A stretch of DNA of 64,000 bases, taken from assembly GCA_965213625.1 (NCBI GenBank), contig CBDBZU010000004.1, forward strand, positions 1,472,001 to 1,536,000, read 5' to 3'. Origin of the DNA: a bacterium. GTDB lineage: Bacteria; UBA8248. Positions 9,150 to 63,524 of this stretch are shown here, piece by piece. Within the stretch, counting starts at the first letter, position 1. The number at the start of each line of letters is the position of its first letter. Below the pieces are notes generated by a model that was not told where the DNA came from, made no database searches, and saw only the letters and a list, made by a program, of their open reading frames with translations. The position numbers and the translations under genes are program-made.

Positions 9150-9481
9150 GGTCTCTCCAGTCCTGAAATGTTATCGACTGTTGTATGTATCCTGGGCAAG
9201 TCATTCTAAATGAAGAGATTTTCACGATTATAGCGAAATTAGCTATCTTATAAGAAAACCATAAACTCTCTAACTTAGATATAAACTTCTTTTCCAGGTC
9301 CGATGCGCAATCGCCCTTTGGGTACCGGTTGCCCGCCTATTCCCCGTGCCACTACCCGAGGAACCCGTCTGCGTCCAAAAGAGAACACACGAGGTTTGTG
9401 ATAAGATCGATTGCGTCGCTTTTTATCATCCGTCGTGTGAAAGGTTCGTCGCCGGGTTTCTCTTTCGGGAGCCGCGAGAAG

Positions 9482-10975: not shown

Positions 10976-13900
10976 GTGCTGAGTCGAAGCTGCATCCGAA
11001 GGCCCGTGGGAACCATCATGGGCGTGGTGTGTGCGCTGGTGCTCGGCTTTTTTGCGCTCACGCGACTGCCTGTCGATTTCCTGCCCAGAATCGTCTATCC
11101 GCGAATATTCATAGGGATAGACTTCGAGGGGGCCGACCCCAAAGTGGTCGAGGAGCAGGTGACCAAGGTGGTGGAGCGCGAACTCGCGACCACGCAGGGG
11201 GTGGTGCGCATTTTCTCGATCAGCCGCGAGGGCGCCGCGCGCTTGTGGATGTTCTTCGATTTCGACCGAGACATCGATCTCGCGCTCCAGGACGCCATCA
11301 CCAAATTCAACGTCGCCAGAAGAAACCTGCCGCAGGAGATACAGGATCAGCTACAGAACACGCGCATCTTCAAGTCCGACCCGGCGCAGGTGCCCATCAT
11401 CGAATACGCGCTGTCTTCCAAAACCCTCAAAGGTCCGCAGCTTCAGACCTGGGCGCGAAAGGTGCTCATCCCCCAGCTCATGACCGTCCCCGGTATCGCT
11501 TCGGTGGAGGCGTTCGGGGGCCAGGACGAGGAGGTGCAGGTGCTCGTCGATCTGCCGAGGATGCAGGGTCTGGGTCTCGACCTGCCCGCGGTCTTGAGGC
11601 GGATGCGCTCCGAGAATATGGACCTGGCCGCCGGACGGGTGAAAACCGCCCACCGGGAGTATTCGAGCCGGACGGCGGGCAAGCTCAAGAGCGCGGGGGA
11701 GCTTTCGCGCCTCATCTTCCCCACCAGGGACGGCCGCAGAGTCTATCTGCGTGATTTCGCAAAAGTTCACGACGCCGGCAAGGAGCGGCGCATATTCGTG
11801 TGGCTGAACGGCGATGAGAGCGTCAAGGTGGTGGCTCTGAAGCAGCCCGACGCGAACACGGTCTCCGTCGTGGACGGTCTCAGCGATAGACTCGCCTTCC
11901 TGACGCGCTACGGCATCGTTCCGCCCGACATCACCCTCGTTCCGATTTCGGATCAGAGTTTCTTCATCCGCGCCTCGATCAAGAATGTCCTCTCCTCCGC
12001 CTTGGTGGGCGGCACTTTGGCGATACTGGTGGTGCTCTGCTTCCTGGGGAGTCTCAGGCGCACACTGATCATCGGCCTGGCGATCCCGATCGCTTCGGTC
12101 TTCACGTTTTTTCTCATGTGGGTGCTCGGCTTCACCTTCAACATATTCAGTCTGGGCGGGGTGGCGCTCGGCGTCGGGATGCTCGTGGATAACGCCATCG
12201 TCATGCTCGAGAACATTTCGCGCCATCAGGCGGGAGGCGGTGACCCCGTGGAGTCGGCGGAGAGTGGCTCCGCCGAGGTGGAGAGCGCCATGTTGGCTTC
12301 CACGTTCACGAACGTGGCCGCCGTGATGCCGTTTTTGCTGGTATCAGGCTACGTGGCGTTGCTGTTCCGCGAGTTGATACTCACCATCACGCTGGCGTTC
12401 ATTTGCAGCCTCATGGTCGGTCTCACGGTCGTGGCCATGCTCTCCGCCCGGCTCCTGCAGGTCCCGATGAGCAGCGGCTTCAGCCGCTTTCCACTTTTCC
12501 GCCTATTCATCTGGTTCATCGATCTGCTCAACCGGATCTATCGTTATCTCTTAAGGCCGGTTCTCACTCTCCGCTGGGTGGTCATCATCCTCGCCCTGGC
12601 CGTCTGCGCGAGCAGCTACATGCTCATCGGCAAGCTGGGCAATGAACTCCTGCCCCAGGTGGACGATGGGCGTATCTCGGTGGATATCCGCTTCTCTCCC
12701 GGCGGCACCTTGGAATACACCAAACAGGTGACGCGCGAGATTCACGACATGCTCGTGCGCGACCCCGCCGTCGACAAAGTGTTCGCCACGGCGGGAGGGC
12801 GTCTTTTCGGGCGCAATTTCTCGCCCTCCGCCACGAGGGGCAGAATCGATGTGACACTCAAAGACGGCGTGAGCGTTTTCGAATACCTCAGAAAGCTGAG
12901 ACCCCGGCTCACGCGGATGACGTATCCAGACGCGCGTATTTATGCCTTCAAGAGCCGGGTGCGCGGCCTTCGCACCTCCAATACACGCCACAACAAGAGT
13001 TTTTCCCTGGGCGTCCGGGGAGAGGATCTGCCTACGATCAACCGCATTGCCGAAGAAGTCGTAGAGAAGCTCCAGGGGGTGGATGGGCTTCACAACGTGC
13101 AGATGACCGAGGACAGGCCCCGGCCCGAGTTCCGCATCCAGGTGAACAGGGAGCGCGCGGCGGAACTCGGCCTCTCGGTCGAGGACGTGGGCGACACCGT
13201 GGCCACGGCGGTCGATGGCTCCATCGCCACCTTCATCAACCGGGTGGATACGCGCGTGCCTGTGCGGGTCAAGTTCTCGGACACCGAGATAAAAAGCGAG
13301 CAGGATCTGGCGCAACTGCCCCTGTTTCCCCAGAACCAGAACGGGCGCGCCACGCGCTTGAACCACGTGGCGCACATTCGCTACGGACAGGGCAGTTCGG
13401 TCATTACCCGCACGGATCAGAACCGCCACCTCCAGATAACGGGTGACATCCAGGGCCGTTCGCTGGGCGACGTGAGCGCGGACGTGCGCGCACGCTTGAA
13501 AGGCATCAACGTACCGAGGGGCTACTTCATCCTGCCCGGCGAGGATGAGGAGAACCTGAAGAAATCGAACCGCGAGCTTCTTATCCTGGCGCTTCTCGCG
13601 ATATTTTTGGTCTACACGGTGCTGGCCGTCCAGTACGACTCGCTCGTGAATCCCTTGGTCATCATCTTCGCCGTTCCGCCGGCGCTCACCGGCGCGCTGC
13701 TTGGCCTCTATCTCACGAAGACGCCCTTCGGCTCAACGGTGCTCATCGGCGTCATACTCCTGGTGGGCATCGTGGTGAACAACTCCATCGTCATGATCGA
13801 CTACGTCGAACGCCTGAGAGAACGCGGAATGGATATCAGAGAAGCCATCATCGAGGGAGCATCGACGAGGCTGCGCCCGATTCTCATGACCACACTGACA

Positions 13901-14116
13901 ACCATCATCGCGCTCACGCCTCTGGCGAGCGGCTGGGGGAAGGGCTCGGAAATGCTCAAGCCCTTAGGCCTCGTCGTGTTGAGCGGGCTCTCCCTATCCA
14001 CCCTGTTCACGCTCTTTCTCGTGCCCTGCATCTATCTTGCGGCCCAGAATTTCGTGCGCTCTCTCCGGCGCGCCGTGGGTCTGCGCGAGACGAAATACAC
14101 CGCACCCGCCGCATAG
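10976..14116 (+). CDS. RND (AcrB/AcrD/AcrF family) efflux permease
   Basis: 1046 aa. IRRPV, GMLVDNAIVMLENI, GIVVNNSIV, RLRPILMT. Confidence 0.96.
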   Translation: MLSRSCIRRPVGTIMGVVCALVLGFFALTRLPVDFLPRIVYPRIFIGIDFEGADPKVVEEQVTKVVERELATTQGVVRIFSISREGAARLWMFFDFDRDIDLALQDAITKFNVARRNLPQEIQDQLQNTRIFKSDPAQVPIIEYALSSKTLKGPQLQTWARKVLIPQLMTVPGIASVEAFGGQDEEVQVLVDLPRMQGLGLDLPAVLRRMRSENMDLAAGRVKTAHREYSSRTAGKLKSAGELSRLIFPTRDGRRVYLRDFAKVHDAGKERRIFVWLNGDESVKVVALKQPDANTVSVVDGLSDRLAFLTRYGIVPPDITLVPISDQSFFIRASIKNVLSSALVGGTLAILVVLCFLGSLRRTLIIGLAIPIASVFTFFLMWVLGFTFNIFSLGGVALGVGMLVDNAIVMLENISRHQAGGGDPVESAESGSAEVESAMLASTFTNVAAVMPFLLVSGYVALLFRELILTITLAFICSLMVGLTVVAMLSARLLQVPMSSGFSRFPLFRLFIWFIDLLNRIYRYLLRPVLTLRWVVIILALAVCASSYMLIGKLGNELLPQVDDGRISVDIRFSPGGTLEYTKQVTREIHDMLVRDPAVDKVFATAGGRLFGRNFSPSATRGRIDVTLKDGVSVFEYLRKLRPRLTRMTYPDARIYAFKSRVRGLRTSNTRHNKSFSLGVRGEDLPTINRIAEEVVEKLQGVDGLHNVQMTEDRPRPEFRIQVNRERAAELGLSVEDVGDTVATAVDGSIATFINRVDTRVPVRVKFSDTEIKSEQDLAQLPLFPQNQNGRATRLNHVAHIRYGQGSSVITRTDQNRHLQITGDIQGRSLGDVSADVRARLKGINVPRGYFILPGEDEENLKKSNRELLILALLAIFLVYTVLAVQYDSLVNPLVIIFAVPPALTGALLGLYLTKTPFGSTVLIGVILLVGIVVNNSIVMIDYVERLRERGMDIREAIIEGASTRLRPILMTTLTTIIALTPLASGWGKGSEMLKPLGLVVLSGLSLSTLFTLFLVPCIYLAAQNFVRSLRRAVGLRETKYTAPAA

Positions 14117-14220
14117 GTCCAGGCTCAAAACGGTCTGGGCCACCTCTCTGGATTTGCGCGGGAAATCCCCGTAGTATCCCCTCCGTCTGAAAGCTGGTTA
14201 TTTTGCAATAGGGAGAGAAC

Positions 14221-14958
14221 ATGGCAAGGAAAGGAATGGGCGAAATGGTGCGCGCGGACGGCAGGCTTCCAGATGAGAACCGGAAAATCCGCGTCGAGCC
14301 CGATTACGTAAATACCTGCGCGGGAAGCTGCCTCATCTCGGTGGGAGATACGAGGGTCCTGTGCGCGGCTTCGGTGGAAGGGCGCGTGCCGCCCCACAAG
14401 CGCGATTCGGGCGAGGGTTGGGTGACGGCGGAATACGCTATGCTGCCGGGCAGTTCCCCCTGGCGGGTGGATAGAAAACGCGCACGAGCGGGCCGCAGCC
14501 AGGAGATACAGCGCTTGATCGGGCGTTCGATGCGCTCGATAGTCGACCTCTCGAAAATCGAGGGGCTGACGATTTACATCGACTGCGATGTCATACAAGC
14601 CGACGGCGGCACGCGGTGCGCCGCCATCACGGGGGGCTACGTGGCGCTTGCGCACGCGGTGAACACCCTGCTCGCGGAGGAGCGTATCGACGAATCGCCT
14701 ATCCGCGAAGCGGTGGCCGCGGTGAGCGTCGGCGTGGTCGGGGGCGTCCCCATGCTGGATCTGGATTACTCGGAGGATTCGACCGCCGAGGTGGACATGA
14801 ACGTCGTGATGACCGGCGGCGGCCGCTTCGTGGAGCTTCAGGGAACGGCCGAGCAGACCCCGTTCCGCAAGAGCGATCTGAGCCGCTTAATCGCCCTGGC
14901 GGAAAAAGGCATCGGCGAACTCCTGGAGATTCAGGTGAATCACGTCGGCGCGAAATGA
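14221..14958 (+). CDS. rph: Ribonuclease PH
   Basis: GWVTAEYAMLP, EIQRLIGRS, DVIQADGGTRCAAITG, DMNVVM, ELQGTAE. Confidence 0.97.
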   Translation: MARKGMGEMVRADGRLPDENRKIRVEPDYVNTCAGSCLISVGDTRVLCAASVEGRVPPHKRDSGEGWVTAEYAMLPGSSPWRVDRKRARAGRSQEIQRLIGRSMRSIVDLSKIEGLTIYIDCDVIQADGGTRCAAITGGYVALAHAVNTLLAEERIDESPIREAVAAVSVGVVGGVPMLDLDYSEDSTAEVDMNVVMTGGGRFVELQGTAEQTPFRKSDLSRLIALAEKGIGELLEIQVNHVGAK

Positions 14959-15557
14959 AGATCGTTCTCGCGAGTGGAAATCCCGGAAAAGCGCGCGAGG
15001 TGCGCGCCGCCCTTGAGGGTTTGGACGTCGAGTTGTTAAGCCCTGATGAGGCGGGTATCGAATTCGACGTTGAAGAGACCGGCTCCACCTACGCGGAAAA
15101 CGCGCTCATCAAGGCGCGGGCCGCGTGCGAGGCGAGCGGCTTGTCCGCCCTGGCCGATGATTCGGGCGTCGAAGTGGATGCGCTGCCCGGTGAGTTGGGA
15201 GTACGTTCCGCGCGCTTCGGCGGCGAGGGGCTGGATGATTCTGGGCGTAACGCGCTCTTGCTCGAAAGGATGCGCGAGGTTGCGGATGCAGAGCGAGGTG
15301 CTCGCTACGCCTGCGTGCTGGCTTTCGTTAAGCCGGATGGCTGGTTCGGTTTTTTCGAGGGCGCGATGCACGGGCGAATACTGCGTGCGCCTAAGGGGGA
15401 GGGTGGATTCGGCTACGATCCGCTCATGTATCTGCCCGAGCACGGCTGCGCCGTCTCGGAGCTTCCGCTCGATGTGAAAAACCGCATCAGCCACCGGGGA
15501 ATCGCGCTTGCGGAATTCCGCGGGTGGCTGGCCCGCGAGGCGGCGGATGAGTCATAA
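14955..15557 (+). CDS. rdgB: Non-canonical purine NTP pyrophosphatase (RdgB/Ham1)
   Basis: LASGNPGK, ENALIKA, LADDSG, GFGYDP, KNRISHRG. ATGA overlap with rph. Confidence 0.96.
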   Translation: MKIVLASGNPGKAREVRAALEGLDVELLSPDEAGIEFDVEETGSTYAENALIKARAACEASGLSALADDSGVEVDALPGELGVRSARFGGEGLDDSGRNALLLERMREVADAERGARYACVLAFVKPDGWFGFFEGAMHGRILRAPKGEGGFGYDPLMYLPEHGCAVSELPLDVKNRISHRGIALAEFRGWLAREAADES

Positions 15558-15665
15558 TAGAGGGACGAGAAGAAAATGCGGCTGCTCTTCACCGGTGGTG
15601 AAGATGGCCGATGATAAACAAGGTGCCCATGATTTCATGGAGCGCGCGGAAAGGAGAAAACAGGT

Positions 15666-16343
15666 ATGTCCAGGATCGAGATGATTCAGCCCGAAGAAGC
15701 GGATGCCGACGTGGCCCGCTTCTACGAGGCTACCACCGCCATGCTGGGCCGTGTCCCGCATTCGATGCGGGTGCTGGCGAAGACTCCCCACATCGCCAAG
15801 GCCATGCTGCCCTTCGTGGCGACGCTTCAGCGCGAGGGTGGGGGCAGCGTGCTCACGTCCAAGGTAAAGGAGATGGTGGTCATCAAGACGAGCCATCTTA
15901 ACGGGTGCGCATACTGATACGCGCACAACACGTCGCTTGGTCAAGCGGCTGGTATCACCCCCGAGCAAGTGGAAGTTATCGGCACCGATGGCTACATGGA
16001 ATCGGATTTGTTCACCTCGCGCGAAAAAGCGGCCATCCTGTGGGCGGAGCACGTAACGCTCAACACCGCGCGTTCGAGAGACGACGTGTTCGAGGAAGTG
16101 CGAAAACACTTCTCCGAAGCCGAGATCGTCGAACTCACGATGGTGAGCGGACTGTTCAACCTCTTTAACCGCTACATGGATTCGCTCGGCATCCCGCTCG
16201 AAGAGCAGCGTGAGGTCGACAAGATCAAGAAATCTCTCCATTTGGACGGCGGGAAGGTCAAAACCTACTACAAGACGATGGTCGATCACTGGCCGAACGA
16301 GTATCCCGAACCAGACGCCCAGGACCCGAACAAAAACGGCTGA
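15666..16343 (+). CDS. AhpD/carboxymuconolactone-decarboxylase-like selenoprotein (C-A-Y-U motif, Sec at TGA 15915-15917)
   Basis: ORFs 15666..15917 and 15969..16343 share one frame and are separated by a single TGA: KEMVVIKTSHLNGCAY-U-YAHNTSLG, matching the AhpD CxxC-xxH motif. A hairpin follows the TGA. Confidence 0.88.
15915..15957 (+). promoter_or_regulatory. Candidate bacterial SECIS element
   Basis: Apical stem GTCGCTT-GGTC-AAGCGGC (15932-15949), loop 21 nt after the TGA. TGATAC and GTATCA can also pair as an outer stem. Confidence 0.75.
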
Positions 16344-16358
16344 TACATATAGCAAATC

Positions 16359-16395
16359 AAGACCGCCTCGGGGCGTCGGCTCCGGGGCGGTTTTT
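16359..16395 (+). terminator. Rho-independent terminator
   Basis: GACCGCCTCGGGG...CTCCGGGGCGGTT stem followed by a T-run, just after the selenoprotein stop. Confidence 0.75.
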
Positions 16396-16536
16396 GGTTG
16401 GGGGCTTCCGCATCGCGTGACGCGGGTTTCGGCCACATTCCTATTTTTGCCCCTGCTGGATATCATCCGCTCGAATCGACATAATATGTCCGTTCGCTGC
16501 TGCAGGATGTGACCCCTCCATTACCGAGGATTCCGC

Positions 16537-17001
16537 ATGAAGTGCATCGTCTGTGCCATTGCAGTGCTTGCCACCGTTGTCTCCGCAAGCGCCGAGACGA
16601 ACGTGGAAAGCGTGTTCAACTGCCAGGTGAGCTACACCATCCTGAACGGCTACAAGGTGGAGCAGAAGGTGCGCATCACCTTGCCGGCCGACAAGCGCGA
16701 CTTGGCTGTCTGGCTGGTGGAGCGCAAAAAAGGCGAGTTCAAGAAGCTGGCTTATCCAATAGGAGGCGAGGGAGAACTCCTCATCACGCGGCCCTTTAAC
16801 AAGGAGAAATCCGTCACCTACCCATTCATCCTCACCTGGCAGCCCTTCGGCCGCTTCCGCCTTACGGGGTTTTTCCTGTCGAGGAGGCATTCCCACACCG
16901 TCGTGGTGCGTGATGAGAAGGAGAAGCGGATCATCGAGATATTCCCCGCCTTTCCGGCCCACATCGCCACCAAGCTCGCGCGCGGGGAGTGTGAGAAGTA
17001 A
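16537..17001 (+). CDS. Hypothetical exported protein
   Basis: GAGG RBS, signal peptide MKCIVCAIAVLATVVSASA, coding-like codon usage. Confidence 0.7.
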   Translation: MKCIVCAIAVLATVVSASAETNVESVFNCQVSYTILNGYKVEQKVRITLPADKRDLAVWLVERKKGEFKKLAYPIGGEGELLITRPFNKEKSVTYPFILTWQPFGRFRLTGFFLSRRHSHTVVVRDEKEKRIIEIFPAFPAHIATKLARGECEK

Positions 17002-17014
17002 AGGAGAAACACAG

Positions 17015-17332
17015 GTGTTCAAAAGAGTCGTCCATCCTGGCGAGATTTTGAAGGATGAATTGACGGAACTCGGCGTCACGCCCACCGAATTCGCGCGCCA
17101 GATCGACGTACTACCCAACCGGGTGAGCCAGATTATCAATGGCAAGCGTTCGATCACCGGCGATCCGGCCCTGCGCTTCGGTCACTGGTTCGGCGTCGAG
17201 CCCGAATTCTGGCTGAACCTGCAGGCCCATTTCGAACTTGCCTGCGCCGAGGAAGAATCAGGCGATGATGTCCGCCGTCTGCCTACGAGGGAGAACCCAC
17301 CGCCTAGGGCCGCATTGCCAAAAGCGATTTAA
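17015..17332 (+). CDS. higA: HigA/VapI-family antitoxin (Xre HTH)
   Basis: VHPGEILKDEL...RVSQIINGKRSIT...ALRFGHWFG...FWLNLQ. AAGGAG RBS before the GTG at 17015. Confidence 0.9.
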   Translation: MFKRVVHPGEILKDELTELGVTPTEFARQIDVLPNRVSQIINGKRSITGDPALRFGHWFGVEPEFWLNLQAHFELACAEEESGDDVRRLPTRENPPPRAALPKAI

Positions 17333-17432
17333 TAAAGACGATTGTCGTCGGGATCGAACCAGCATTTTACCTCGGCGGGGTTCCATGACTTCTCACCCAT
17401 ACCCGATTTCTATCCGCGCTAATCCTCTGTTT

Positions 17433-18290
17433 CTACAAATAACACTTGAGCAACCTGATGCTCCTCTCCGCCGCAACCCGGAAGGCGGGTTTCTGGTCAA
17501 TCTGCACCGATAGCACGCCCTCGTAGTCGATTTCCCTGAGCGCGCGGATGAAGTCACCGAAGTGGATGTGGGCCGAACCCGGATAGCCGCGCGTGGAATC
17601 GGCCACGTGCACGTATTCTATCCAATCGCGAGCGGCGAAGATGGCCCCGGGGATGGAGGCGTCCTCGGAATTCATCCAGCAACTGTCGATCATGAGGGCG
17701 AGGCCGGCGTGATTCTCCTCCTTCACGTATTCCATTCCCTGGCGCACGGTGTTGATGAAGTTCGTCTCGTAGCGGTTGTAGGGTTCGATGTAGATCTTCA
17801 TGCCGCGCTCTGCGGCATAGTCCGCTCCTGCGGTCATCGCGTCGCGCATCCAGCCGTTCGAGATTTCCCACATCTCGCCGGGGATGCACGTGCCGCGGAA
17901 CCGGCCGATGTTCACGCCCAAGGCGCCGAGTTTCTCGCCCGCATCGATCAGCGAGCGCAGCCGGGCGGCGCCCGCTTCCCGGACTTCGGCGTCCGGGTGG
18001 CACATCATCACCCCGTCCTGAAGCTCGCTGGGGGCCGAACCTATCATCGTCACCGAAAAGCCCGAGCGTGCGATTTCCGCCTCCACCCCCTGTGCGTCGG
18101 GGTCCTCGGGGTCGCGCATGGCGACCTCCAAAGTGTCGTAGCCCAATTCCTTGAGGACGCCCAGGTTTTCTCCGAAATCCCCGCGCACGCCCGGCATCAG
18201 GGGCGAGCGCACCTCGGGCGTGGTGATGACGTAGCCCACGCTCATGCGGCTGGGTTCAGAGTATTCGGCAGGGTAAAGGGATATCGGCAT
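17433..18290 (-). CDS. Sugar phosphate isomerase/epimerase (xylose-isomerase-like TIM barrel, IolO-like)
   Basis: IEPYNRYETNFIN, YVHVADSTRGYPG. GGAG RBS before 18290. Confidence 0.85.
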   Translation of the reverse strand: MPISLYPAEYSEPSRMSVGYVITTPEVRSPLMPGVRGDFGENLGVLKELGYDTLEVAMRDPEDPDAQGVEAEIARSGFSVTMIGSAPSELQDGVMMCHPDAEVREAGAARLRSLIDAGEKLGALGVNIGRFRGTCIPGEMWEISNGWMRDAMTAGADYAAERGMKIYIEPYNRYETNFINTVRQGMEYVKEENHAGLALMIDSCWMNSEDASIPGAIFAARDWIEYVHVADSTRGYPGSAHIHFGDFIRALREIDYEGVLSVQIDQKPAFRVAAERSIRLLKCYL

Positions 18291-21196: not shown

Positions 21197-21579
21197 ATTA
21201 TTCGTTTCGCCTGCGCCGCTCTGGATGCGCGCGCCTGGGATAATGTCCAAGCGCCGACGCCGCTGGACATTTTCGCCGGTTTTCTTATACTGATCCGCAC
21301 AACATGAAAATTTGGGGAGATGGGGGGCGCTCGAGGGGCGGGGCCGAAAGGCCCCATGCGTGCACTTCGCAGATTTATCTGTCCAGATGATCCACTTCCT
21401 CACATCCCTATGCCCTTACTTGATGCTAAGCTGTTCTTAATCCATCGTGACTTCTCGCGCATGATGAACCTTCCTTACCGAGGCGTTGTTGACGATCTCG
21501 ATTTGTGATATTTTCTCTTGCCTTTCGGACGGAAAGCGGCGCCTGCGAATGGGTCGCCACGGAAAAGTCGCCGAGTCGG

Positions 21580-21656
<77 letters not shown>

Positions 21657-21725
21657 TCATTTTGGAATTCGCGTCGCCCTTTTCTCCAAATGCTTGGCCA
21701 CTGCGGGAGAGGGGGATGAAGGCAT

Positions 21726-51987: not shown

Positions 51988-52710
51988 CTAGTTATCCCTT
52001 TTCGAAACAAACGCAGTAGCCCCTTCTAGGATAAAGTTCTTGATGTTTGCGATGACCATTATGTCTTCGCGCATCTTTCGACCAGCGGCGTGAATTCTGG
52101 CCGTGGTTTCCTCAACAACTTTTACCACGTCCGGATGCATTAGTTCGCCCGGATGGCCTAGTTCTTGGGCAAAATCTGCTGGCCCGAACATCATGTAATC
52201 AATACCTGGTACTGATAGGATATCATCAAGATTATTGATAGCATCCTGACTTTCAATCATGGCGCCAACCAGTATACTTTCATCGCATTTTTTCATAAAT
52301 GCAGGCATATCGTCGATTCCGCTCATATAGTTTGTTCCTCGACCGCCACCAAACGAACGCCGCCCCATGGGGCCAAACCTGCTTGCGTTGACCAATTGTT
52401 CGGCGTCTTTCTTGCTGGCAATGTGGGGGCCGATGATACCTCGAATTCCCCTGTCCAAGAATTGAGTGATGGTGCCATCAGAAATATCAGGAACCCGAGC
52501 AATCGGCGTCAGTCCAACTAGGTCGGCCGCTCGGCAGACGTTCTCAATCGACGGCATATCAAACACTCCGTGTTCACAGTCGAGGAAAACAAAATCCAGA
52601 CCCACCGGCTCCAACATATCAACAATTTCTGGGGACGGTACGGTTAGCCGGACTCCGTAGGCTTTTTTCCCAGCTTGAACAGCATCCTTAATCGCATTCT
52701 TAAAGATCAT
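51988..52710 (-). CDS. HpcH/HpaI aldolase family protein
   Basis: DFVFLDCEHG, ARVP, LDRG, MIES, FGPADF. GC content clearly lower than the flanks. Confidence 0.9.
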   Translation of the reverse strand: MIFKNAIKDAVQAGKKAYGVRLTVPSPEIVDMLEPVGLDFVFLDCEHGVFDMPSIENVCRAADLVGLTPIARVPDISDGTITQFLDRGIRGIIGPHIASKKDAEQLVNASRFGPMGRRSFGGGRGTNYMSGIDDMPAFMKKCDESILVGAMIESQDAINNLDDILSVPGIDYMMFGPADFAQELGHPGELMHPDVVKVVEETTARIHAAGRKMREDIMVIANIKNFILEGATAFVSKRDN

Positions 52711-52723
52711 CGGTCTTAAAACC

Positions 52724-52952
52724 TCATTCCTGCAAATGAGAGTACATGGGCTGTCCGGCAACGGGCATTTGAGCGACCAGCACTTTTCCATGTCCGTCCA
52801 GGATATACATGGTTTTGTTGTCGAGTCCTCCGTAGGCGATATTTGTGAGCTTATCGCTTGAGCAAGTTTCTATTCGATAGATCGGGAGTCCGATTTTGTT
52901 AAACACCCAAACCACGCCCATATTGGTTTGTACGCAAACGACATTGCCATCC
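52724..52952 (-). pseudogene. 3' fragment of an SMP-30/gluconolactonase-family gene
   Basis: DGNVVC...GVVWVFNKIGLP...TNIAYGGLDNKTMYI...MPVAGQPMYSH matches the family C-terminus. The 5' part is replaced by opposite-strand ABC transporter sequence. Confidence 0.75.
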
Positions 52953-54320
52953 GGCGACCTGGCCATGTCGGGAATGACATTCCAGAATCTTCGCGATGGC
53001 TTGCAGGGAGTCGTCGCCAACAGCTTTCTGTCGATTATATTTCTGATTCCGGTTTTTGGCGTCATTTTTTTGTACGACGCCATCCTCGGCGTCATCACCC
53101 TCGTCTTCAGCCTGGCTTCCCTGCTGGTCACCGTAGTCCTCGGGTGGCGCCAGATTTCACCTTATGGGCGGATGCTCAGCGCAGCGCGTCGCGTAGCCGG
53201 CCGACTGTTCCAGATCGTGGGGGGCATCTCCAAGCTGCGAATGGATAATGCGGAAGGGTCGGCTTACGCCATCTGGGCGAGGGGCTATCGTGAGCAGAAG
53301 CGCGCGGAGATAGAACTGGGCGCGCTCGAGGGACATTCGCGCGCATTCGGCGCCGCGCTCCCTTTTCTTGCCGGCGGGGTGCTGCTTTTTTCGGTGGTGG
53401 CGGTCGAAGACCGAAACATTCCGGTCGGCGATTTTCTCGTCGTTTACACGGTCTTTATCGTTTTCCAGTCCGCCATCGCCCGGCTCGGCGAGTCCTTCGG
53501 CGCAATTGCCGCCATGCGTCCGGCGTTCCAGCAGATGCGTCCGCTGCTCTCCGCAGTCCCTGAAACCGTGACGGAAGGAGAGCCGGTTGAATACCTGGGC
53601 GGTGAAATACTGTTCGACCGCATTTCATTCCGCTACGATCCCGACGGTCCGTTGATTCTCGACGACGTCTCGATTCACGCCCGTCCCGGCGAATTCGTCG
53701 CGATTGCCGGTGAGTCCGGCGCAGGGAAGAGCACCCTGTTCCGCCTCGCGCTCGGTATCGACTTGCCGGCCGCCGGCGCGGTGTATTACGACGGCCGCGA
53801 CCTGAAGCACCTGAATCTGAAACAGGTGCGCAAGAAAATTGGCGCTGTGCCGCAATCCGTCGGGCTCCATCCACAGGATCTCTGGGACAATCTGGTCAGT
53901 CACCATGATGCGGTGACGATCGATGAAGTATGGTCGGCGGTCCGTACCGCCGAAGTTGAAGCCCAAATCAAGGACATGCCCATGGGCATGATGACCATGG
54001 TGGGCACCAGCGGGTCTGTCCTGTCGGGCGGCGAGAGCCAGCGCATCACCATCGCCCGCTCGGTGATCGGCAGCCCGCGAATCATGTTGCTGGACGAGGC
54101 GACGAACTGGCTGGATAACGAAAGCCAGGCCAAGATAATGCAAAACCTTGCCGCCCTGACTTCCACCCGCCTCGTCATTGCCCACCGCCTGTCCACGCTG
54201 GAACAGGCCGACCGCATCTACGTGCTGCAAGCCGGGAAAGTCGTACAAAGCGGTTCCTTCAGCGAACTCAAGGAGGTGGACGGGGTATTCAAGGAATTGA
54301 TAAAAAGGCAAATCGCTTGA
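52947..54320 (+). pseudogene. 5'-truncated NHLP-bacteriocin-system ABC transporter (permease plus ATPase)
   Basis: Begins mid-permease (PSGDLAMSG). GESGAGKST, LSGGESQR, LLDEAT, IAHRLST. No RBS, N-terminal domain or C39 peptidase. Confidence 0.78.
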
Positions 54321-54395: not shown

Positions 54396-55697
54396 ATGAA
54401 GAAGCCTTTTGGCCTGGTTGATTCCCTCATATCGCGAGCTGGCGGCGACTACGAATTCCGGGAACGTCTTCTCGCCAAGCCCAAAGAGACCATCGAAGCG
54501 GAATTTGGCGTGTCGATGGCCGAAGACCATGAGATTCACGTACACGAAGAAACCTATACCACGACGCACCTCGTCCTTCCGCCGCGCAGCAAATTCACCG
54601 AGGCCGAACGGGAGGAGGCGAAAACCGGCGCGGAATCGCTCGAGTTTCTTCGCAAAACGATGCACGACCCCGCGCCGCCCCTTCGTCCGCCAAAACTTCA
54701 AGGGGAGAGAACCCCGAAGAACGCCGCGACCACCGGGGCGCTGGCGAAAGCGGGTGGAGAAAGCATCCGCCGCGGTCTTGGTTTCCTGGAATCCACGATA
54801 GACGAGAACGGAGCCTGGCATTGTATCCGGTTCAACTTGGGCGATCCGGATATACCGAGGCATTTCGAAAGACCTCCCTTTATTTCGGCTTTCTGCGCCC
54901 TGGCTCTCGAATGTTGCGAGGAAGCGCGCGCCAGGGCCATATGCGCTGCGACAAGGGCGTATCTCGTCGACACTATCGAATATCCCGGATTGTGGCGCTA
55001 TTATCGCCACCTGCCCCAGGATCTCGACAGCACCGCACTGTGTTCACTCGTGATTGGAGGCCACCTCTGGATTTTACTGGGGAGGAACGTTCCGCAGATA
55101 CTGGCGAATCGCGACGAGGAAGGCCGCTTCATGACCTGGGTTCTCGAAGACGACGAACCCGATGTGGTATCGCGCTTTCGTATCGAAGCCGACCCTGTAG
55201 TCAATGCGAACGTCATTGCCTATCTCGGCGACTGTCCAGAAACCAGGGATGCCCAAAGGTGGCTGGAAGCCTTGATAACCGAAGGCAATCTCGAGGGATC
55301 GTCGAAATGGTATCCCGACGAGGTCGCGATCTGCTATGCGACCGCCCGCGCCATGATTCGCGCACGGCCCGCTCTCGACCGGCTGCGCCCGATACTAGCG
55401 GAGCGCATCCTGGGCTTGCGGGACGAGGAAGGGGAATTCGGCAACATCCTCCAAACGGCTCAGGCCGTCTCGGCGCTCCATCATGTTGGACGCCTCGACG
55501 GCGTCGACGCGAAACGCGAGGTGGAGAGGTTCACGGGTTCGCAGCGTGAGGACGGTAGCTGGCCGGAGCTTCTCGCGTTTGGCGACCAAACGTTGAAGTG
55601 GGGTACGGTAGGGCGGATAGGACATGGCTCAGAATCCGTGACCACGGCGTTTTGTATCGAAGCTCTCGAACGTCTCCTCGCAATCTTGCGGACCTGA
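54396..55697 (+). CDS. NHLP-leader-like domain fused to a squalene-cyclase/prenyltransferase-like (alpha/alpha) domain
   Basis: N-terminal RAGGDYEFRERLLAKPK...VHEET...HLVLPP. QW-like repeats DENGAW, RDEEGRF, RDEEGEF, QREDGSW. PQDLDSTA resembles the cyclase PDxDDTA motif. Confidence 0.8.
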   Translation: MKKPFGLVDSLISRAGGDYEFRERLLAKPKETIEAEFGVSMAEDHEIHVHEETYTTTHLVLPPRSKFTEAEREEAKTGAESLEFLRKTMHDPAPPLRPPKLQGERTPKNAATTGALAKAGGESIRRGLGFLESTIDENGAWHCIRFNLGDPDIPRHFERPPFISAFCALALECCEEARARAICAATRAYLVDTIEYPGLWRYYRHLPQDLDSTALCSLVIGGHLWILLGRNVPQILANRDEEGRFMTWVLEDDEPDVVSRFRIEADPVVNANVIAYLGDCPETRDAQRWLEALITEGNLEGSSKWYPDEVAICYATARAMIRARPALDRLRPILAERILGLRDEEGEFGNILQTAQAVSALHHVGRLDGVDAKREVERFTGSQREDGSWPELLAFGDQTLKWGTVGRIGHGSESVTTAFCIEALERLLAILRT

Positions 55698-55779: not shown

Positions 55780-58176
55780 ATGCCACAAAGTCCCGTAGCA
55801 AGTGGTGGCTCCGGTCTAGGCGACGCCGAAGCCGTTCAGCGTATCGAGCCGTCCATTCTGACCGCTCTTCCGCATTATCTGCCATTGGTCGTTTTTCCGC
55901 TGATTCTTCTCGGCGCGTACAATGGAGGCTGGTGGTTGCTGCCGCCGCTCGTTTTTATGAGTGTTGCGGGGTCGCTTGATAAGGTGCTGGGTCGGGACGG
56001 ACAAAACATGGACCCGGCGAATACGTCGGAGCACCGCCTGTTCTGGCACAATCTGCCGGTCTGGTCGTGGTCGTTTCTGTGGCCGCCGACGCTCATTTTC
56101 GGTATGTGGCAAATCCTGGCGGCGGATCAATTCTCCATCTGGGAAGGCGTGCTCCTGGCGATCATCCTGACGATGGAAGCGCAAGCCGTATTCGTAGTCG
56201 GCCACGAAATGATTCACCGGCGCACGACCTGGGAACGCCGGGTGGGCGAATTCCTGCTCGCCACCGTCTCCTATCCGCAATACGCCACGGAGCACGTCTA
56301 TATTCACCATGCCCTGGTCGGCACGCCGTATGACGTCGGGTCCGCTCCGAAGGGGGAAAGTTTCTGGAGATATCTACCCAAGGAAGTTGTCAGCAACCTC
56401 GTCCATTCCTGGGAAGTCGCAAGAGAACGCTTGGCGCGGCGGCGTTTGCCCGTGTGGCATTACGACAATCCGTTCTGGCGCTACGTCGTCGGCGTCGCGT
56501 TCTGGTACGGACTGGTTTACTGGATGGGCGGGATCTGGGCCGTTCCCGTCTTCGTCTTCCTCGGTCTGTCCTGCGTCTTTTCGATGAAGATGAGCAACTA
56601 CTTTCAACACTACGGCCTGCGCCGGGTCCGTCTGGACAACGGTCGCTGGGAAAAGGCGATGCCGCGCCATTCCTGGAGCGCGGACTGGAAGTTCAGCAAC
56701 TGGATGTTTTTCAATATGCAGCGCCATGCGGATCATCATGCGGTGGCGTCGCGCCAGTATCCGCTGCTGCAGGTCAGCGGCCTCGATGAGTCGCCGGAGT
56801 TGCCGGGAACCTACGCCGACATGATGAACATCGTGCTGCGGCCCAAGCGCTGGTTCGAGAAGATGGACCCGCTGGTGGACCAATGGCGCGAACATTTCTA
56901 TCCGGAGGTTGACGACTGGGGCCCCTACGACAGCCCGATTGCCGCGGCGCGGCCCGACGCCTTTGACGCGATACTCGAAATCTTCGGCGCCGCCCCGAGG
57001 CTTGCCAAACGGGTTGAGCGGAACCCGGAACTTCTGGACAACCTGCAAGACCAGGAATTCCTCGACCTCGACCTGCCGAAGGGGTTCGGGCCGGATGATG
57101 AATACGAATCGATTGCGCGGCGCGGGCTTGCGAGAGTCTACTGGACTTACGAAATGGACGTTCAGGAATTGAAGGGTCTGGTCGCCGAACTGCCGGTGGC
57201 CGATGCGAGGGAGACCGCTGAAATCGTGCGAAACTGGTCGAACGACAAGGCGTTTCAGATCGGTATGCACGTGATGCGCGGAAACCTGTTGCCAGCGGAA
57301 GCGAGAACGGCGCTGTCGAATCTCGCCGAAGCATCGGTTGCGACCGTGCTCGCCTCCGTGGTCGCGGATTATGTCGACCGGTTCGGAATGCTGAGTGTGG
57401 GTGGAGTCGCTGCCGTTTTCCTGGGCGATCTGGCCAGCCGGGAAGCTTATCCCGGTGTTGGAATCGATATGCTGCTCGTCCATGACGGTCTGCGGTCCGG
57501 CAAAAACGAACAAGTGTGCCAAAGTTTCCGAGATGCCCTGACCGACCTGGCGCAGGACAGCCTGTTGTTCTCTCCGGTCCCGCCCGGCTCGAATTCCATT
57601 CTTGAGTTGCCGCTTTCCGAACTGGCCGAACATTATGGAGATTCGACTTCAGGCGAAGTGCCCGCCCTCACCAGGGCGCGTTGCGTGTTCGAGTATGGCG
57701 GTTCCGATATCGAAGGTCGCTTCGATGAGGCGCGGCGCCGGGTACTGGCCGAATGCAGGGCGAACGAGTCTTTGCTCGCCCGGTTGAGCGAGCGGACGGA
57801 AGACCCTGCCGAAACAGGCGTGTCCGCATACGCCCGGATGCGCGGCGGGCTGAACGATGTCGAGAAGGTCGCGCGTTACCTGCAGTTGGTGCGCGCCGGA
57901 AGCGACTTCGACGATCCGGCGCCGACCGCCGCGGCGGTGTTCGAAGCCGCAGGCGCCGAGCCGCTGGCGCAAGCCGCGGCCATGTGGCGGGATTTACAGG
58001 GCGTCATGCGCCTTGTCGGCGAGGAAGGGTTCGACGCGACGGCGGCAGGGCCGAAGGTCAAATCTCTTGTTGCGAACGCTTGCGGTCAGGAGGATTTCGA
58101 TGCGCTGGCGTCGGCGGTCGCCGAAACCGCATCCAGCGCCGCCGCCCGCATCGATACGCTCGTTTCGCGTGCATGA
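55780..58176 (+). CDS. AlkB/fatty-acid-desaturase-type membrane diiron enzyme fused to a degenerate GlnE-like nucleotidyltransferase region
   Basis: His boxes GHEMIH, EHVYIHH, NYFQHYGL, MQRHADHHA. C-terminal LSNLAE, LGDLASRE...IDMLLV, RGGLNDVE..ARYLQL. Confidence 0.82.
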   Translation: MPQSPVASGGSGLGDAEAVQRIEPSILTALPHYLPLVVFPLILLGAYNGGWWLLPPLVFMSVAGSLDKVLGRDGQNMDPANTSEHRLFWHNLPVWSWSFLWPPTLIFGMWQILAADQFSIWEGVLLAIILTMEAQAVFVVGHEMIHRRTTWERRVGEFLLATVSYPQYATEHVYIHHALVGTPYDVGSAPKGESFWRYLPKEVVSNLVHSWEVARERLARRRLPVWHYDNPFWRYVVGVAFWYGLVYWMGGIWAVPVFVFLGLSCVFSMKMSNYFQHYGLRRVRLDNGRWEKAMPRHSWSADWKFSNWMFFNMQRHADHHAVASRQYPLLQVSGLDESPELPGTYADMMNIVLRPKRWFEKMDPLVDQWREHFYPEVDDWGPYDSPIAAARPDAFDAILEIFGAAPRLAKRVERNPELLDNLQDQEFLDLDLPKGFGPDDEYESIARRGLARVYWTYEMDVQELKGLVAELPVADARETAEIVRNWSNDKAFQIGMHVMRGNLLPAEARTALSNLAEASVATVLASVVADYVDRFGMLSVGGVAAVFLGDLASREAYPGVGIDMLLVHDGLRSGKNEQVCQSFRDALTDLAQDSLLFSPVPPGSNSILELPLSELAEHYGDSTSGEVPALTRARCVFEYGGSDIEGRFDEARRRVLAECRANESLLARLSERTEDPAETGVSAYARMRGGLNDVEKVARYLQLVRAGSDFDDPAPTAAAVFEAAGAEPLAQAAAMWRDLQGVMRLVGEEGFDATAAGPKVKSLVANACGQEDFDALASAVAETASSAAARIDTLVSRA

Positions 58177-60536: not shown

Positions 60537-61655
60537 ATGGATATCGACGAAGCAGTCGCGCTTACCCAGGACCGCCTCGTCCAAGAAGGCGGCACCATGG
60601 CTGAATTGCTCGGGCAATTTCGAAGCAGAATTTCTCCGACTCTTATCGGAGAGCGGGAGTGGGGGCGCATACTGGAACGTGCGAGCCGACTTCCCATTAC
60701 CATGGGCGCCCAGCCGTTCGGCTTCGAACTGCCTCTGCATGACAGTCGGCCGGCGGCGGATTTCGGCGTCTCGCTGGCGAGCGGAAACCGGTCAGGCGAT
60801 TTTTTCGAGGAGCGGGCGCGGACCGACGAGGCGGATAAAACTGCGAGAGCGGTCAGGCGGCTGTTCAGGGAAATGGAAGCCCAGGACTCGCCTCTGCGAG
60901 AGATTGTGGGACGTAAATTGATGCTGGAATATGACATAGATTCGGCGCCGGGAAGTAAAGATTCGCTGCCGGGAATGTTCCTGCGGCCCAACGAACGCAC
61001 GTTATCCGGTGGCGACGGCCTCCAGACCGATGTCGGAGTCGTGGTTGACGCCCTCGTTTCCTGCGTCGGCTGGGAAAAGATAGCCGCTGAACGGAAAAAC
61101 GCCGAACGGGTTTACCTGGCGCAGCCGGAAGACACGCGCCTGGATTCTTTCGGGATATTCCCCTCTCGCGAACGCACAATCCGCCTGGCGATCATGGGCT
61201 TCAAATCACAGGGGGATATTTGTTCCTATCTCGAGAACATTGGCTGGCCGGGTCGGCTCTCGGCCGTAGACGCTTTGATTTCACGCTTCAAGGAACGCGC
61301 GGATATTGTGAGAACCGGAGCGAATGTTGACGTGCAGGCGGACGGTGTCGGTCCGACGCTCGGCCTGACGCTCATCGTCAAGCAGAGATATACGAAAGAT
61401 TCACGTTACTGGCTCGACGGCCTGACCGATTGGGACCCCTTTCTCGACGCCCTGAGCCATGAGGACTTTGTCGTTCCGGAAAAGATTGAGGCGCTTGCCG
61501 ATTGGGTTTCGAAACCGACGACTCTGTTCGCCAGGACCGGGCAGTTTCTCATGTTGCGCGGCATTCACCACATAAAACTGGTCATTTCCGGAAATCGGCT
61601 CAGGCAAGCCAAGGCCTATGTTTACATGGTGCTTTCCGGGGCCCTCTCCATTTGA
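60537..61655 (+). CDS. Hypothetical RiPP-cluster protein
   Basis: AAGGAGG RBS directly after the YcaO stop. 372 aa. Motifs FGFELPL, LEYD, HIKL...KAY. Function not assignable. Confidence 0.75.
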   Translation: MDIDEAVALTQDRLVQEGGTMAELLGQFRSRISPTLIGEREWGRILERASRLPITMGAQPFGFELPLHDSRPAADFGVSLASGNRSGDFFEERARTDEADKTARAVRRLFREMEAQDSPLREIVGRKLMLEYDIDSAPGSKDSLPGMFLRPNERTLSGGDGLQTDVGVVVDALVSCVGWEKIAAERKNAERVYLAQPEDTRLDSFGIFPSRERTIRLAIMGFKSQGDICSYLENIGWPGRLSAVDALISRFKERADIVRTGANVDVQADGVGPTLGLTLIVKQRYTKDSRYWLDGLTDWDPFLDALSHEDFVVPEKIEALADWVSKPTTLFARTGQFLMLRGIHHIKLVISGNRLRQAKAYVYMVLSGALSI

Positions 61656-61767: not shown

Positions 61768-62019
61768 CTACCAGCAGCAGGAGAGGCCTGCCGAAACAGC
61801 TTCGAGTTGCTCCTCGGTGATGTGCGGGTCCGGGGGCAACGCAATATGCACTGTCTGCATGTCGCTCTCATGAATCTTGATATTCATTGATTCGGGCATC
61901 GTGATGCCCAATTCCTCACAGATGGTCGACTTCGGGTCTGCGAGTAGCTGTTGCCTGAAATCCGCGTCCAGGGCGGACTTATCGACAATCTGCTTCAACA
62001 TTTCATCGCCGCTTCTCAT
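61768..62019 (-). CDS. NHLP (nitrile-hydratase-like leader) RiPP precursor, predicted core LSCCW
   Basis: KSALDADFRQQLLADPK...IKIHES...HIALPP...ITEEQLEAVSAG|LSCCW. AGGGG RBS. Confidence 0.92.
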   Translation of the reverse strand: MRSGDEMLKQIVDKSALDADFRQQLLADPKSTICEELGITMPESMNIKIHESDMQTVHIALPPDPHITEEQLEAVSAGLSCCW

Positions 62020-62112: not shown

Positions 62113-63524
62113 GGTCAAGTCCTGTAGATGCTGGATAATTTCTTTGGGCGCATATCGGCTGAGGGCTGCCTGATGTCGTTTTCCGCCTCGTAGTTCTGGT
62201 CCAGTTCCCTTCTGAGGGCGTCCATCTGGCGGCGCTCGAAGCCGGTGACCTTGAGCGCCCGCCATCGCTCGGAAGCCCGGATCATGGCGGCGAACATGAG
62301 CTTGAGCACCGGCTTCTCTCCGAAGGCGTTGGGGATGATTTTCATGCGCCGGCGCTCCTCGACGAACAAGCGTTCGAGCAGGTTCGTCGTGCGCACGGCC
62401 CGGCGGTGGTTGACGGGCGCTCGCAAGTGCGCGATGCAGGCTTCGAAGTCATCGCGGAAGCACGCCACGGCGCCGGGCAATTCGGACTCGTAGTCCCTGG
62501 CGAGCCCCTCGGCCAGTTCCCGGGCGATGGCGCGGGAGGGAGCCTGGTAGGCCGCCGTGGCCCGCGCCTTGAACTCCGGCCAGATGTCCTCGGGCGCCTT
62601 GGCCGCGAGGTTCCTCATCCGGTGCGCCAGGCAGCGTTGTCGCTCCGAGCGCGGGAAGCAGGTCTCGATCGCCTTGATGATGCCGGGCGCCCCGTCGCTG
62701 ACCACAACCAGCGGGTCGCCCAGGCCGCGGGCGCGCATGTCGTGGAAGAACGCGCTCACCGTCTCGGCGTCCTCCTTCGAACCCGCCATCAGATGCAGCA
62801 GGACCTTGGCGCCGTTCGCCGTGAATCCCCAGGCCGCCAATACCGGTTCGCGCTTGCTCCCCGGGCGGATACGTTCCGCAATCCCGTCGATGAACAGATA
62901 GACGACCTCGTATTCGCCCAGGTCCCGCGACGCGAACTCCTGGTAGTCCGCCCACAACCGCTCGCCGAGCTCCGAGACCGCCGTGCGCGAGAGCAGAAGA
63001 CGACCGCTCTCGTCGGTGAAGACGTCCTCGATGTCGCGCACCGACAGGCCGCGCGCCAATAGCTCCACCGCCAGCCCCTCGAGGGTCTCCGTGCGCCCCT
63101 TGAGGCCCTCCCGGATCTCCGAGCGGAACCCCTCCTCGCGCCCGGCAATCTGCGGCGCCGCGTACTCGACGAACCCTTCCGCCGTCTTCAGGCGACCCAG
63201 GCGGCGGCCGTTGCGATAGCCTTGGCCGGGCTTCGCGCCGTGTTCGTAGTACTCCCGGCCCAGAGCGTCTCGGCTCTCCGCCTCCAGCGCTTCTTCCACG
63301 ATGAGCCGCGTGGCGAGCTTCACCAGGTCGGCTCGCGCATCGGGACTCGACAGACGGCCTTCGATCAAGTCGGACAGGGATTGGCGAGTATGCATCGATG
63401 CCTGTATTCTCTTCTTCATGGGGTTGCCTCCTCGGTTGGATGCCGGCGCTTACCGGCACGGTTTTGTGATGCCTCCGCCGAGGATGCACCCCTCTAATTT
63501 TTCCAGCAAGTTTAGGACTTCACC
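62113..63524 (-). mobile_element. IS256-family insertion sequence (1412 bp)
   Basis: Imperfect IRs GGTCAAGTCCTGTAGATGCTGGA and TCCAGCAAGTTTAGGACTTCACC. 8-bp direct repeat ATTTTTTT at 62105-62112 and 63525-63532. Confidence 0.9.
62115..63419 (-). CDS. IS256-family (Mutator-like) transposase
   Basis: GYRNG, GLSVRDI, YLFIDG, VVSDGAPG, QRCLAHRMRN, RTTNLLER..E. Confidence 0.95.
   Translation of the reverse strand: MKKRIQASMHTRQSLSDLIEGRLSSPDARADLVKLATRLIVEEALEAESRDALGREYYEHGAKPGQGYRNGRRLGRLKTAEGFVEYAAPQIAGREEGFRSEIREGLKGRTETLEGLAVELLARGLSVRDIEDVFTDESGRLLLSRTAVSELGERLWADYQEFASRDLGEYEVVYLFIDGIAERIRPGSKREPVLAAWGFTANGAKVLLHLMAGSKEDAETVSAFFHDMRARGLGDPLVVVSDGAPGIIKAIETCFPRSERQRCLAHRMRNLAAKAPEDIWPEFKARATAAYQAPSRAIARELAEGLARDYESELPGAVACFRDDFEACIAHLRAPVNHRRAVRTTNLLERLFVEERRRMKIIPNAFGEKPVLKLMFAAMIRASERWRALKVTGFERRQMDALRRELDQNYEAENDIRQPSADMRPKKLSSIYRT

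Follow-up and report, generated by a model that had tools for sequence, protein, structure and literature searches.

We have analysed a stretch of bacterial DNA of 64,000 nucleotides (hereafter the window; lineage UBA8248, assembly GCA_965213625.1, contig CBDBZU010000004.1, positions 1,472,001 to 1,536,000) in which the gene at 55780..58176 on the forward strand encodes a 798-residue protein, P0001, that joins an AlkB-type membrane diiron domain to a degenerate module of the adenylyltransferase GlnE. The gene lies in an operon for a peptide that is made by the ribosome and modified after its translation (RiPP), which we identify as the srp (sponge-derived RiPP proteusin) cluster. We regard P0001, with a confidence that falls somewhat short of even, as a conserved tailoring enzyme of the srp pathway that would oxidise a hydrophobic substituent on the peptide. 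The folds of both parts, the conserved iron ligands, the loss of nucleotidyltransferase (NTase) residues and the gene linkage are directly established.

The anatomy of P0001 and its linkage to the operon can be given with high confidence. The open reading frame starts with ATG, with AGGAG a few bases upstream, and its stop codon overlaps the start of the following YcaO gene in the sequence ATGA at 58173-58176. The upstream neighbour, P0002, ends at 55697, and therefore P0001 is coupled only with the downstream YcaO gene. Pfam placed FA_desaturase at residues 121-329 (E 7e-27) and GlnE (PF03710) at residues 397-637 (E 5.5e-6), where the score of 26.4 bits is just above the cut-off of 24. In PDB the best relatives by sequence were AlkB 8f6t (E 4e-47) and 3k7d, the AT domain of GlnE (E 0.003), and the AlphaFold2 model, built on 102 sequences, reached a predicted local distance difference test score (pLDDT) of 91.5 and a predicted template modelling score of 0.87. 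An earlier note on this DNA, made from the sequence alone, had described the same open reading frame as an AlkB-type oxidase fused to a GlnE module and coupled to YcaO through ATGA, and had proposed domain profiles and a structure model as checks. The FA_desaturase and GlnE profiles matched, the overlap is as described, and Pfam, PDB sequences and fold matches confirmed an AlkB-fold domain joined to a GlnE half-module.

The AlkB-fold domain spans residues 22-386 (55843..56937, forward strand). When superposed on the AlkB of Fontimonas thermophila (FtAlkB, 8f6t), these residues gave a Z score of 40.5 and a root-mean-square deviation of 2.5 A over 354 residues. The His boxes are HEMIH (residues 142-146; 56203-56217), EHVYIHH (residues 171-177; 56290-56310) and QRHADHH (residues 314-320; 56719-56739), and the AlkB signature appears as NYFQHYG (residues 273-279; 56596-56616), all on the forward strand and letter for letter as first read. 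Each of the 121 family proteins keeps all nine iron-binding His residues. Within the AlkB part, 173 of 365 columns (47%) are invariant, and the mean identity to the window protein is 82%. These features indicate that the N-terminal 365 residues of P0001 very probably form an active AlkB-type six-helix membrane diiron oxygenase.

The AlkB part of P0001 is 36-43% identical to the stand-alone AlkBs (~380 residues) of Paracoccaceae and relatives. Among the Paracoccaceae genomes sampled, a stand-alone AlkB is present in 272 of 301, whereas a full or partial fusion is found in only 4. Three positions are specific to the fusions in comparison with stand-alone AlkB: R147 (Gln), Q276 (the Glu of NYxEHYG) and D363 (Asn). 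R147 comes directly after the first His box, and both R147 and Q276 adjoin iron ligands. Position 276 is Gln in 120 of the 121 srp-type proteins; it is Gln in 37 of 42 fusions and Glu in 39 of 39 stand-alone AlkBs.

Residues 376-797 (56905..58170, forward strand) represent, by fold and alignment, one complete GlnE half-module with a degenerate NTase site. Their fold matches were the GlnE halves 1v4a (Z 29.5) and 3k7d (Z 27.1), and the AMPylase DrrA was also matched (Z 18.3). P0001 has one such half and not the two tandem halves (~950 residues) of GlnE. The module is ~28-33% identical to true GlnE, with E values down to 7e-46, and the NCBIfam GlnE equivalogs scored 84, 35 and 16 bits on P0001 against cut-offs of 724, 487 and 625. 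The GlnE architecture that the earlier note had seen in the C-terminal ~400 residues is borne out by Pfam, sequence and fold together.

At the position of the GlnE catalytic loop, residues 549-563 of P0001 read GDLASREAYPGVGID, which includes GDLASRE at 57424-57444 and GVGID at 57454-57468 (both forward strand). This loop had been described as lacking the first metal-binding Asp, and the position is indeed Gly in P0001. In the srp-type family (n=121), the first Asp position of DxD is Ala in 97, Glu in 8, Gly in 7 and Ser in 4 proteins, GDLAS is invariant, and the second acidic residue (D563 in P0001) is Asp or Glu in 117. All eight true GlnE sequences in the alignment carry GKLGGxE, SDLDL, DxRLRPSG and WTWE, whereas DxRLRPSG, which holds the third Asp, and WTWE are absent and the loop is altered in 18 of 18 fusion-family or module sequences (14 AlkB fusions, 2 stand-alone modules and 2 RND-transporter fusions). 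The degeneracy of the NTase site spans the fusion family, including members that are 26-51% identical in the GlnE module. The model keeps the GlnE fold, and the alignment indicates that the catalytic set is lost; we consider it likely, with good confidence, that the GlnE part of P0001 is non-catalytic.

In the GlnE module, 79 of 412 columns (19%) are invariant, and the mean identity to the window protein is 73%. Its first 124 residues are 37% invariant, which is nearly the level of the AlkB part, and invariant columns number 20 of 130 in the NTase core and 13 of 158 in the C-terminal helical part. By these alignments, the module is kept in the family despite the lost NTase residues. A recent accidental fusion with the glnE of the host was also considered and rejected: the window's genome (G000) keeps its own glnE, and the fusion family is old and diverse. 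This genuine two-domain glnE, located elsewhere in G000, scored 233 and 198 bits, against 22.8 bits for the module of P0001.

The same degenerate GlnE-like module was observed outside the fusion family. A 1525-residue protein at positions 13030-17607 of locus L118 (reverse strand) combines it with an AcrB-type RND transporter, and the neighbours of this gene are a second RND gene, an MpaB/rubber-oxygenase-like gene and a LysR regulator, a non-RiPP context. Because the module is also fused to an RND transporter in such a context, the comparison suggests that it has a more general accessory function in membrane proteins, and not a chemistry specific to RiPPs.

The fusion gene is firmly tied to its neighbours. 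Among related loci with enough flank, 72 of 75 have YcaO as the next gene downstream of the fusion, P0002 lies directly upstream in 73 of 76, a small NHLP precursor (SrpE) is present in 70 of 73, and the protein P0004 is present in 73 of 73; a Trp halogenase was found within 10 kb in 50 of 80. The proposed placement in a RiPP operon thus holds upon analysis of the gene neighbourhood, and the homologs lie mostly within such clusters. Divergent fusions, 39-59% identical, also stand beside YcaO: each of the three divergent loci examined carries YcaO and an NHLP precursor. The cores of these three clusters are LCCCW, LCCCGL and RCCC, in which only CCC is constant. In the window, the downstream gene (P0003; 58173..60527, forward strand) encodes a winged helix-turn-helix domain, a leader-binding domain (cyclo_dehyd_2, 141 bits) and a YcaO cyclodehydratase (TOMM_cyclo_SagD, 276 bits), and corresponds by these domain matches to SrpC. 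The conservation of P0001 is as high as that of YcaO.

The precursors end in ITEEQLEA(I/V)SAGLCCCW in 66 of 69 small NHLP frames; two others have LCCSW, and the window has LSCCW. Because the precursor core LCCCW, the YcaO, the halogenase and two ABC exporters fit the published description, we identify the operon by sequence as the srp proteusin cluster, which the earlier note had not recognised. According to the accessible portions of two reports (PMC10858898, PMC10286304), the YcaO SrpC makes thiazolines of the three Cys residues of the SrpE core, and SrpI brominates the terminal Trp. In the part of a further study available to us (bioRxiv 10.1101/2023.06.09.544420), srp precursors with a co-located halogenase make up 66 of those recovered, and in this respect the cluster varies. 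That study and PMC9426513 report that srp ranks, among the biosynthetic clusters of sponge microbiomes, with those that are most widespread and most highly transcribed.

The fusion is left among the 'genes of unknown function' in the portions of the srp literature that we consulted. An AlkB-like or GlnE-like gene in srp clusters is not mentioned in the srp literature searched, a search that the founding JACS 2021 paper lay outside. The literature searched also held nothing on AlkB joined with GlnE or on an alkane monooxygenase with YcaO or a RiPP, and among the matches listed there was nothing relevant on proteusins with a prenyltransferase, a terpene cyclase and sponges. PMC12537861 does not mention prenyl, terpene, desaturase or monooxygenase, and PMC11832590 does not mention desaturase or alkane; in the text of PMC9426513 that was accessible, 'desaturase' refers to another cluster only.

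Two further neighbours bear on the possible substrate. P0002 (433 residues; 54396..55697, forward strand) consists of an NHLP-leader-like N-terminal domain, matched by its family profile to nitrile hydratase alpha/NHLP (E 4e-9), and a toroid resembling class II terpene cyclases, matched to the class II cyclase domain of drimenol synthase (9mhs_B, E 3e-6) and to squalene-hopene cyclase (E 0.004). Residues D209, L210, D211 and S212 of P0002 are invariant, and we take this D-L-D-S to stand where class II cyclases carry their acid motif. An enzyme-sized protein with its own NHLP-leader-like N-terminal domain, that is, a 'leader-tagged' enzyme, is in itself an unusual observation. P0004 (372 residues; 60537..61655, forward strand) shows an ABBA prenyltransferase fold in its AlphaFold2 model (pLDDT 90.4). 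The listed Foldseek matches were all aromatic prenyltransferases (best E 1.8e-5; template modelling (TM) scores 0.4-0.53), an Atlas lead on P0004 agrees with this fold, and P0004 has no match in Pfam or NCBIfam. Separately from the srp operon, a P0004 paralogue (30% identical) adjoins another NHLP precursor at L119 8022-9119 and ~9357-9587 (both reverse strand; G000:C4:1399072-1400587). There is no YcaO or AlkB near this paralogue, and the pair looks like a minimal two-gene proteusin unit.

Considering that prenyltransferase-like, cyclase-like and alkane-hydroxylase-like proteins are conserved together, we favour an isoprenoid substrate. In the pathway that we tentatively propose, P0004 would equip the SrpE peptide, already bearing thiazolines, with a hydrophobic substituent that is probably an isoprenoid, and the leader-tagged, cyclase-like P0002 may remodel, perhaps cyclise, the attached substituent. 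The AlkB domain would then act on a terminal methyl of this substituent, by hydroxylation or further oxidation. The C-terminal 420 residues, the pseudo-GlnE, most likely act as a cytoplasmic structural, docking or ligand-sensing domain, and are predicted to sit on the face of AlkB where the rubredoxin domain attaches in AlkB-rubredoxin fusions. The scaffold or sensor that the earlier note had suggested for the GlnE part would be in keeping with these data. That the enzyme is active, what it oxidises and what the GlnE part does are all inferred here. An attached lipid was among the substrates that the earlier note had offered; the ABBA fold of P0004 and the class II cyclase-like P0002 lend this option support. 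A complex prediction of full-length P0001 with the SrpE precursor gave a score of 0.00 (mark 0.32), which counts neither for nor against binding.

Several points weigh against this proposal. In the accessible parts of PMC10858898 and PMC10286304, only thiazolines and Trp bromination are reported. The prenyltransferase and cyclase assignments are of moderate strength (TM ~0.5 and E 3e-6, respectively), and P0002 is missing from one of the divergent clusters (L116). Because R147, Q276 and D363 differ systematically from stand-alone AlkB, two of them beside iron ligands, the chemistry may not be plain hydroxylation. The electron supply is a further point. Rubredoxin is the usual electron donor of AlkB. 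The rubredoxin family PF00301 gave no match in G000, which is 96.6% complete, and was matched in one of five other srp genomes (G041-G045) and not in the other four, these genomes being incomplete; Pfam found no rubredoxin domain in P0001 itself. Since rubredoxin was not found in five of the six srp genomes searched, the electron supply of P0001 is unexplained.

Next to this proposal, we consider it possible, though unlikely, that the AlkB domain acts on the peptide core, either by converting thiazoline to thiazole in place of a missing FMN dehydrogenase or by hydroxylating a side chain, with the pseudo-GlnE holding the NHLP leader. The data speak neither for nor against the azoline-to-azole oxidation that the earlier note had offered. 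The cluster genes examined include no dehydrogenase of the SagB type, CCC is the only constant feature of the core wherever the fusion occurs, and P0001 is coupled to YcaO through ATGA, all of which would suit such a role. The scarcity of rubredoxin fits an oxidase that draws electrons from its substrate, and the second-sphere changes beside the iron ligands also favour a different chemistry. On the other hand, AlkB structures have a membrane-facing channel for hydrophobic chains, and to our knowledge no AlkB-family enzyme acts on a peptide backbone heterocycle. Action on the core also leaves the co-conserved prenyltransferase-fold and cyclase-like genes unexplained. Hydroxylation or desaturation of Leu, as suggested in the earlier note, is disfavoured: one of the divergent cores is RCCC and another LCCCGL, and because only the three Cys residues are constant across divergent cores, neither Leu nor Trp is a favoured target. 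The more specific form, in which the AlkB domain would oxidise the CCC thiazolines to thiazoles without rubredoxin, the substrate supplying the electrons for O2 reduction, and the pseudo-GlnE would dock the leader or YcaO, is in our view rather more doubtful.

It is less probable again that P0001 is not a tailoring enzyme at all and serves self-protection, membrane-lipid remodelling or the regulation of export while travelling with the cluster. Such a role would agree with the occurrence of the same module on the 1525-residue RND transporter in a non-RiPP context, and P0001 shares with the cluster's two exporters its embedding in the membrane. However, the gene stands within the biosynthetic operon, between P0002 and YcaO and translationally coupled to the latter, and P0001 has kept all of its catalytic His residues and is conserved as highly as YcaO.

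We regard it as very unlikely that the GlnE-like module is a live NTase with a non-canonical site that AMPylates the peptide or a partner protein. The invariant GDLAS(R)E loop, the acidic residue kept in 117 of 121 proteins and the fold match to the AMPylase DrrA are consistent with activity, but 113 of 121 proteins have lost the first Asp of DxD, the DxRLRPSG and WTWE motifs that true GlnE keeps are absent throughout the aligned modules, and few parts of the protein are less conserved than the NTase core. Finally, an ordinary alkane hydroxylase for hydrocarbon use, lying by chance beside a RiPP operon, is hardly credible: the identity to the stand-alone AlkBs of Paracoccaceae and relatives would allow it, but the operon position is fixed across at least nine phylum labels, no further AlkB was found at E <= 1e-8 in the five other srp genomes, where rubredoxin is mostly missing too, and R147, Q276 and D363 are specific to the fusions.

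A protein search with P0001 returned 765 relatives, of which the best 120 are 73-90% identical, full length and 784-815 residues long. In a scan of species-representative genomes, at least 165 relatives were found, and the best 80 of these are 66-93% identical. The phylum labels of these 80 loci are Nitrospinota (nearest to the window), Acidobacteriota, Nitrospirota, Gemmatimonadota, Latescibacterota, Binatota, Myxococcota/'Deltaproteobacteria', Thermodesulfobacteriota, and Alpha- and Gammaproteobacteria; the fusion therefore occurs in genomes labelled with at least nine phyla. Within the window's own genus the gene is patchy, being present in 9 of 22 other genomes, and it was found in 0 of 18 genomes sampled from other genera. 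A FastTree phylogeny of 80 rows (the window and 79 loci; one locus was removed by a filter that required a match of at least 700 residues free of stops) brings together sequences that share a phylum label, and the label changes 9 times where 8 would be the minimum. From this grouping, transfers between phyla were infrequent, and old in comparison with the spread inside each phylum, and rampant recent transfer between phyla is not supported.

When the C-terminal 428 residues were compared with a library of representatives at 50% identity, 553 proteins matched at E <= 0.001. These include ~15 further proteins of 780-830 residues that are 26-51% identical in the GlnE module, and an N-terminal FA_desaturase was found in 8 of the 8 scanned. 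Since these divergent carriers of the module also have FA_desaturase, the AlkB-GlnE architecture is old, and on sequence grounds the fusion is a conserved family and not an accident. Split forms carrying only the AlkB part or only the module were considered as well, and most look like fragments; of 10 that were looked up, at least 4 fall into 90% clusters that also contain members of 785-807 residues. In one genome of the same genus (G020:C1:1417902-1420261; L009/L012, same as L018), the fusion is matched in two parts, residues 1-716 and residues 723-798, suggestive of a frameshift or of faulty assembly there.

In the window, the cluster is present as a partial copy. The segment 52947..61650 is an inverted duplicate, 8704 bp long with 3 mismatches, of part of an intact srp cluster at G000:C4:3526211-3534914. 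The intact cluster (G000 ~C4:3525804-3540987) comprises the halogenase (~C4:3539683-3540987), a 183-residue protein, a C39 exporter, a second exporter, P0002, P0001, YcaO, P0004 and SrpE with the core LCCCW. The duplicate runs from inside the second exporter gene to after P0004, and is followed by a different SrpE and a transposase. Its first gene is a 5'-truncated NHLP-type ABC exporter (ABC2) fragment at 52896..54320 (forward strand; model positions 231-686 of 686), cut at the edge of the duplication; the other cluster copy has the full-length ABC2. The window copy has neither the Trp halogenase SrpI nor the C39 exporter, and the 5' part of ABC2 is missing as well.

Beyond P0004, an SrpE-type NHLP precursor of 83 residues (61768..62019, reverse strand) has the core LSCCW for LCCCW, and a Mutator-family transposase identified by Pfam (62115..63419, reverse strand) adjoins the duplicate. 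The replacement of the first Cys by Ser could lead to an oxazoline product. G000 has four SrpE-type precursor genes: the LSCCW gene of the window and three LCCCW genes at G000:C4:3525819-3526079, 4117536-4117796 and 21453-21713, of which two are orphans far from either cluster copy. At the left edge of the duplicated segment, the guanine plus cytosine content of window positions 52000-52999 is 0.49, compared with ~0.59 around it, and an HpcH/HpaI aldolase gene (51988-52791, reverse strand) lies within this stretch.

In summary, the operon was already known, and P0001 is uncharacterised in the literature that we reached. In the accessible srp literature, only the YcaO and the brominase are the enzymes tested, and the final product and ecological role are not reported. 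The fusion is linked to YcaO (72 of 75 loci) more often than the brominase is found near fusion loci (50 of 80), and a model of the srp pathway that leaves out the fusion, P0004 and P0002 is probably incomplete. If our proposal is true, the natural product would be an oxidised lipo- or terpeno-peptide, which tells chemists which masses to seek. If thiazolines were oxidised directly instead, P0001 would represent a novel type of azoline oxidase, and with it a membrane enzyme of the AlkB family would appear in peptide maturation for the first time. P0001 presents an AlkB-family enzyme in a new setting, with changed second-sphere residues, a pseudo-enzyme partner domain and a rubredoxin that was mostly not found.

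In comparison with known systems, P0001 shares the membrane fold of the AlkB of F. thermophila (8sbb, Z 38.3, and 8f6t as AlkB-AlkG, Z 40.5; 26-29% identity), with the same four His motifs and nine His residues. The AlkB-AlkG fusion likewise carries a C-terminal cytoplasmic domain, which is a rubredoxin there and a pseudo-GlnE in P0001. AlkB has Glu in NYxEHYG and Gln after the first His box, whereas P0001 has Gln276 and Arg147, and the P0001 gene stands in a RiPP operon, whereas AlkB stands in the alk operon. With E. coli GlnE (1v4a, 3k7d), P0001 shares the fold of one half, including the NTase and helical subdomains. GlnE has two halves and its catalytic motifs; P0001 has one half with the motifs lost, in a host that has its own glnE. 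With the srp cluster of Nguyen et al. (JACS 2021, doi 10.1021/jacs.1c03474), as described in papers that cite it, the operon shares the leader end ITEEQLEA(I/V)SAG with LCCCW, the YcaO, the halogenase and the two ABC exporters; relative to it, the window copy is partial in that the halogenase, the C39 exporter and the start of ABC2 are missing, and its precursor has the core LSCCW. P0004 shares the PT-barrel fold of the ABBA peptide prenyltransferases (for example KgpF, 8ye0), and in a further likeness a P0004 paralogue stands alone with an NHLP precursor; the differences are an identity of only 7-15% and the lack of a Pfam match.

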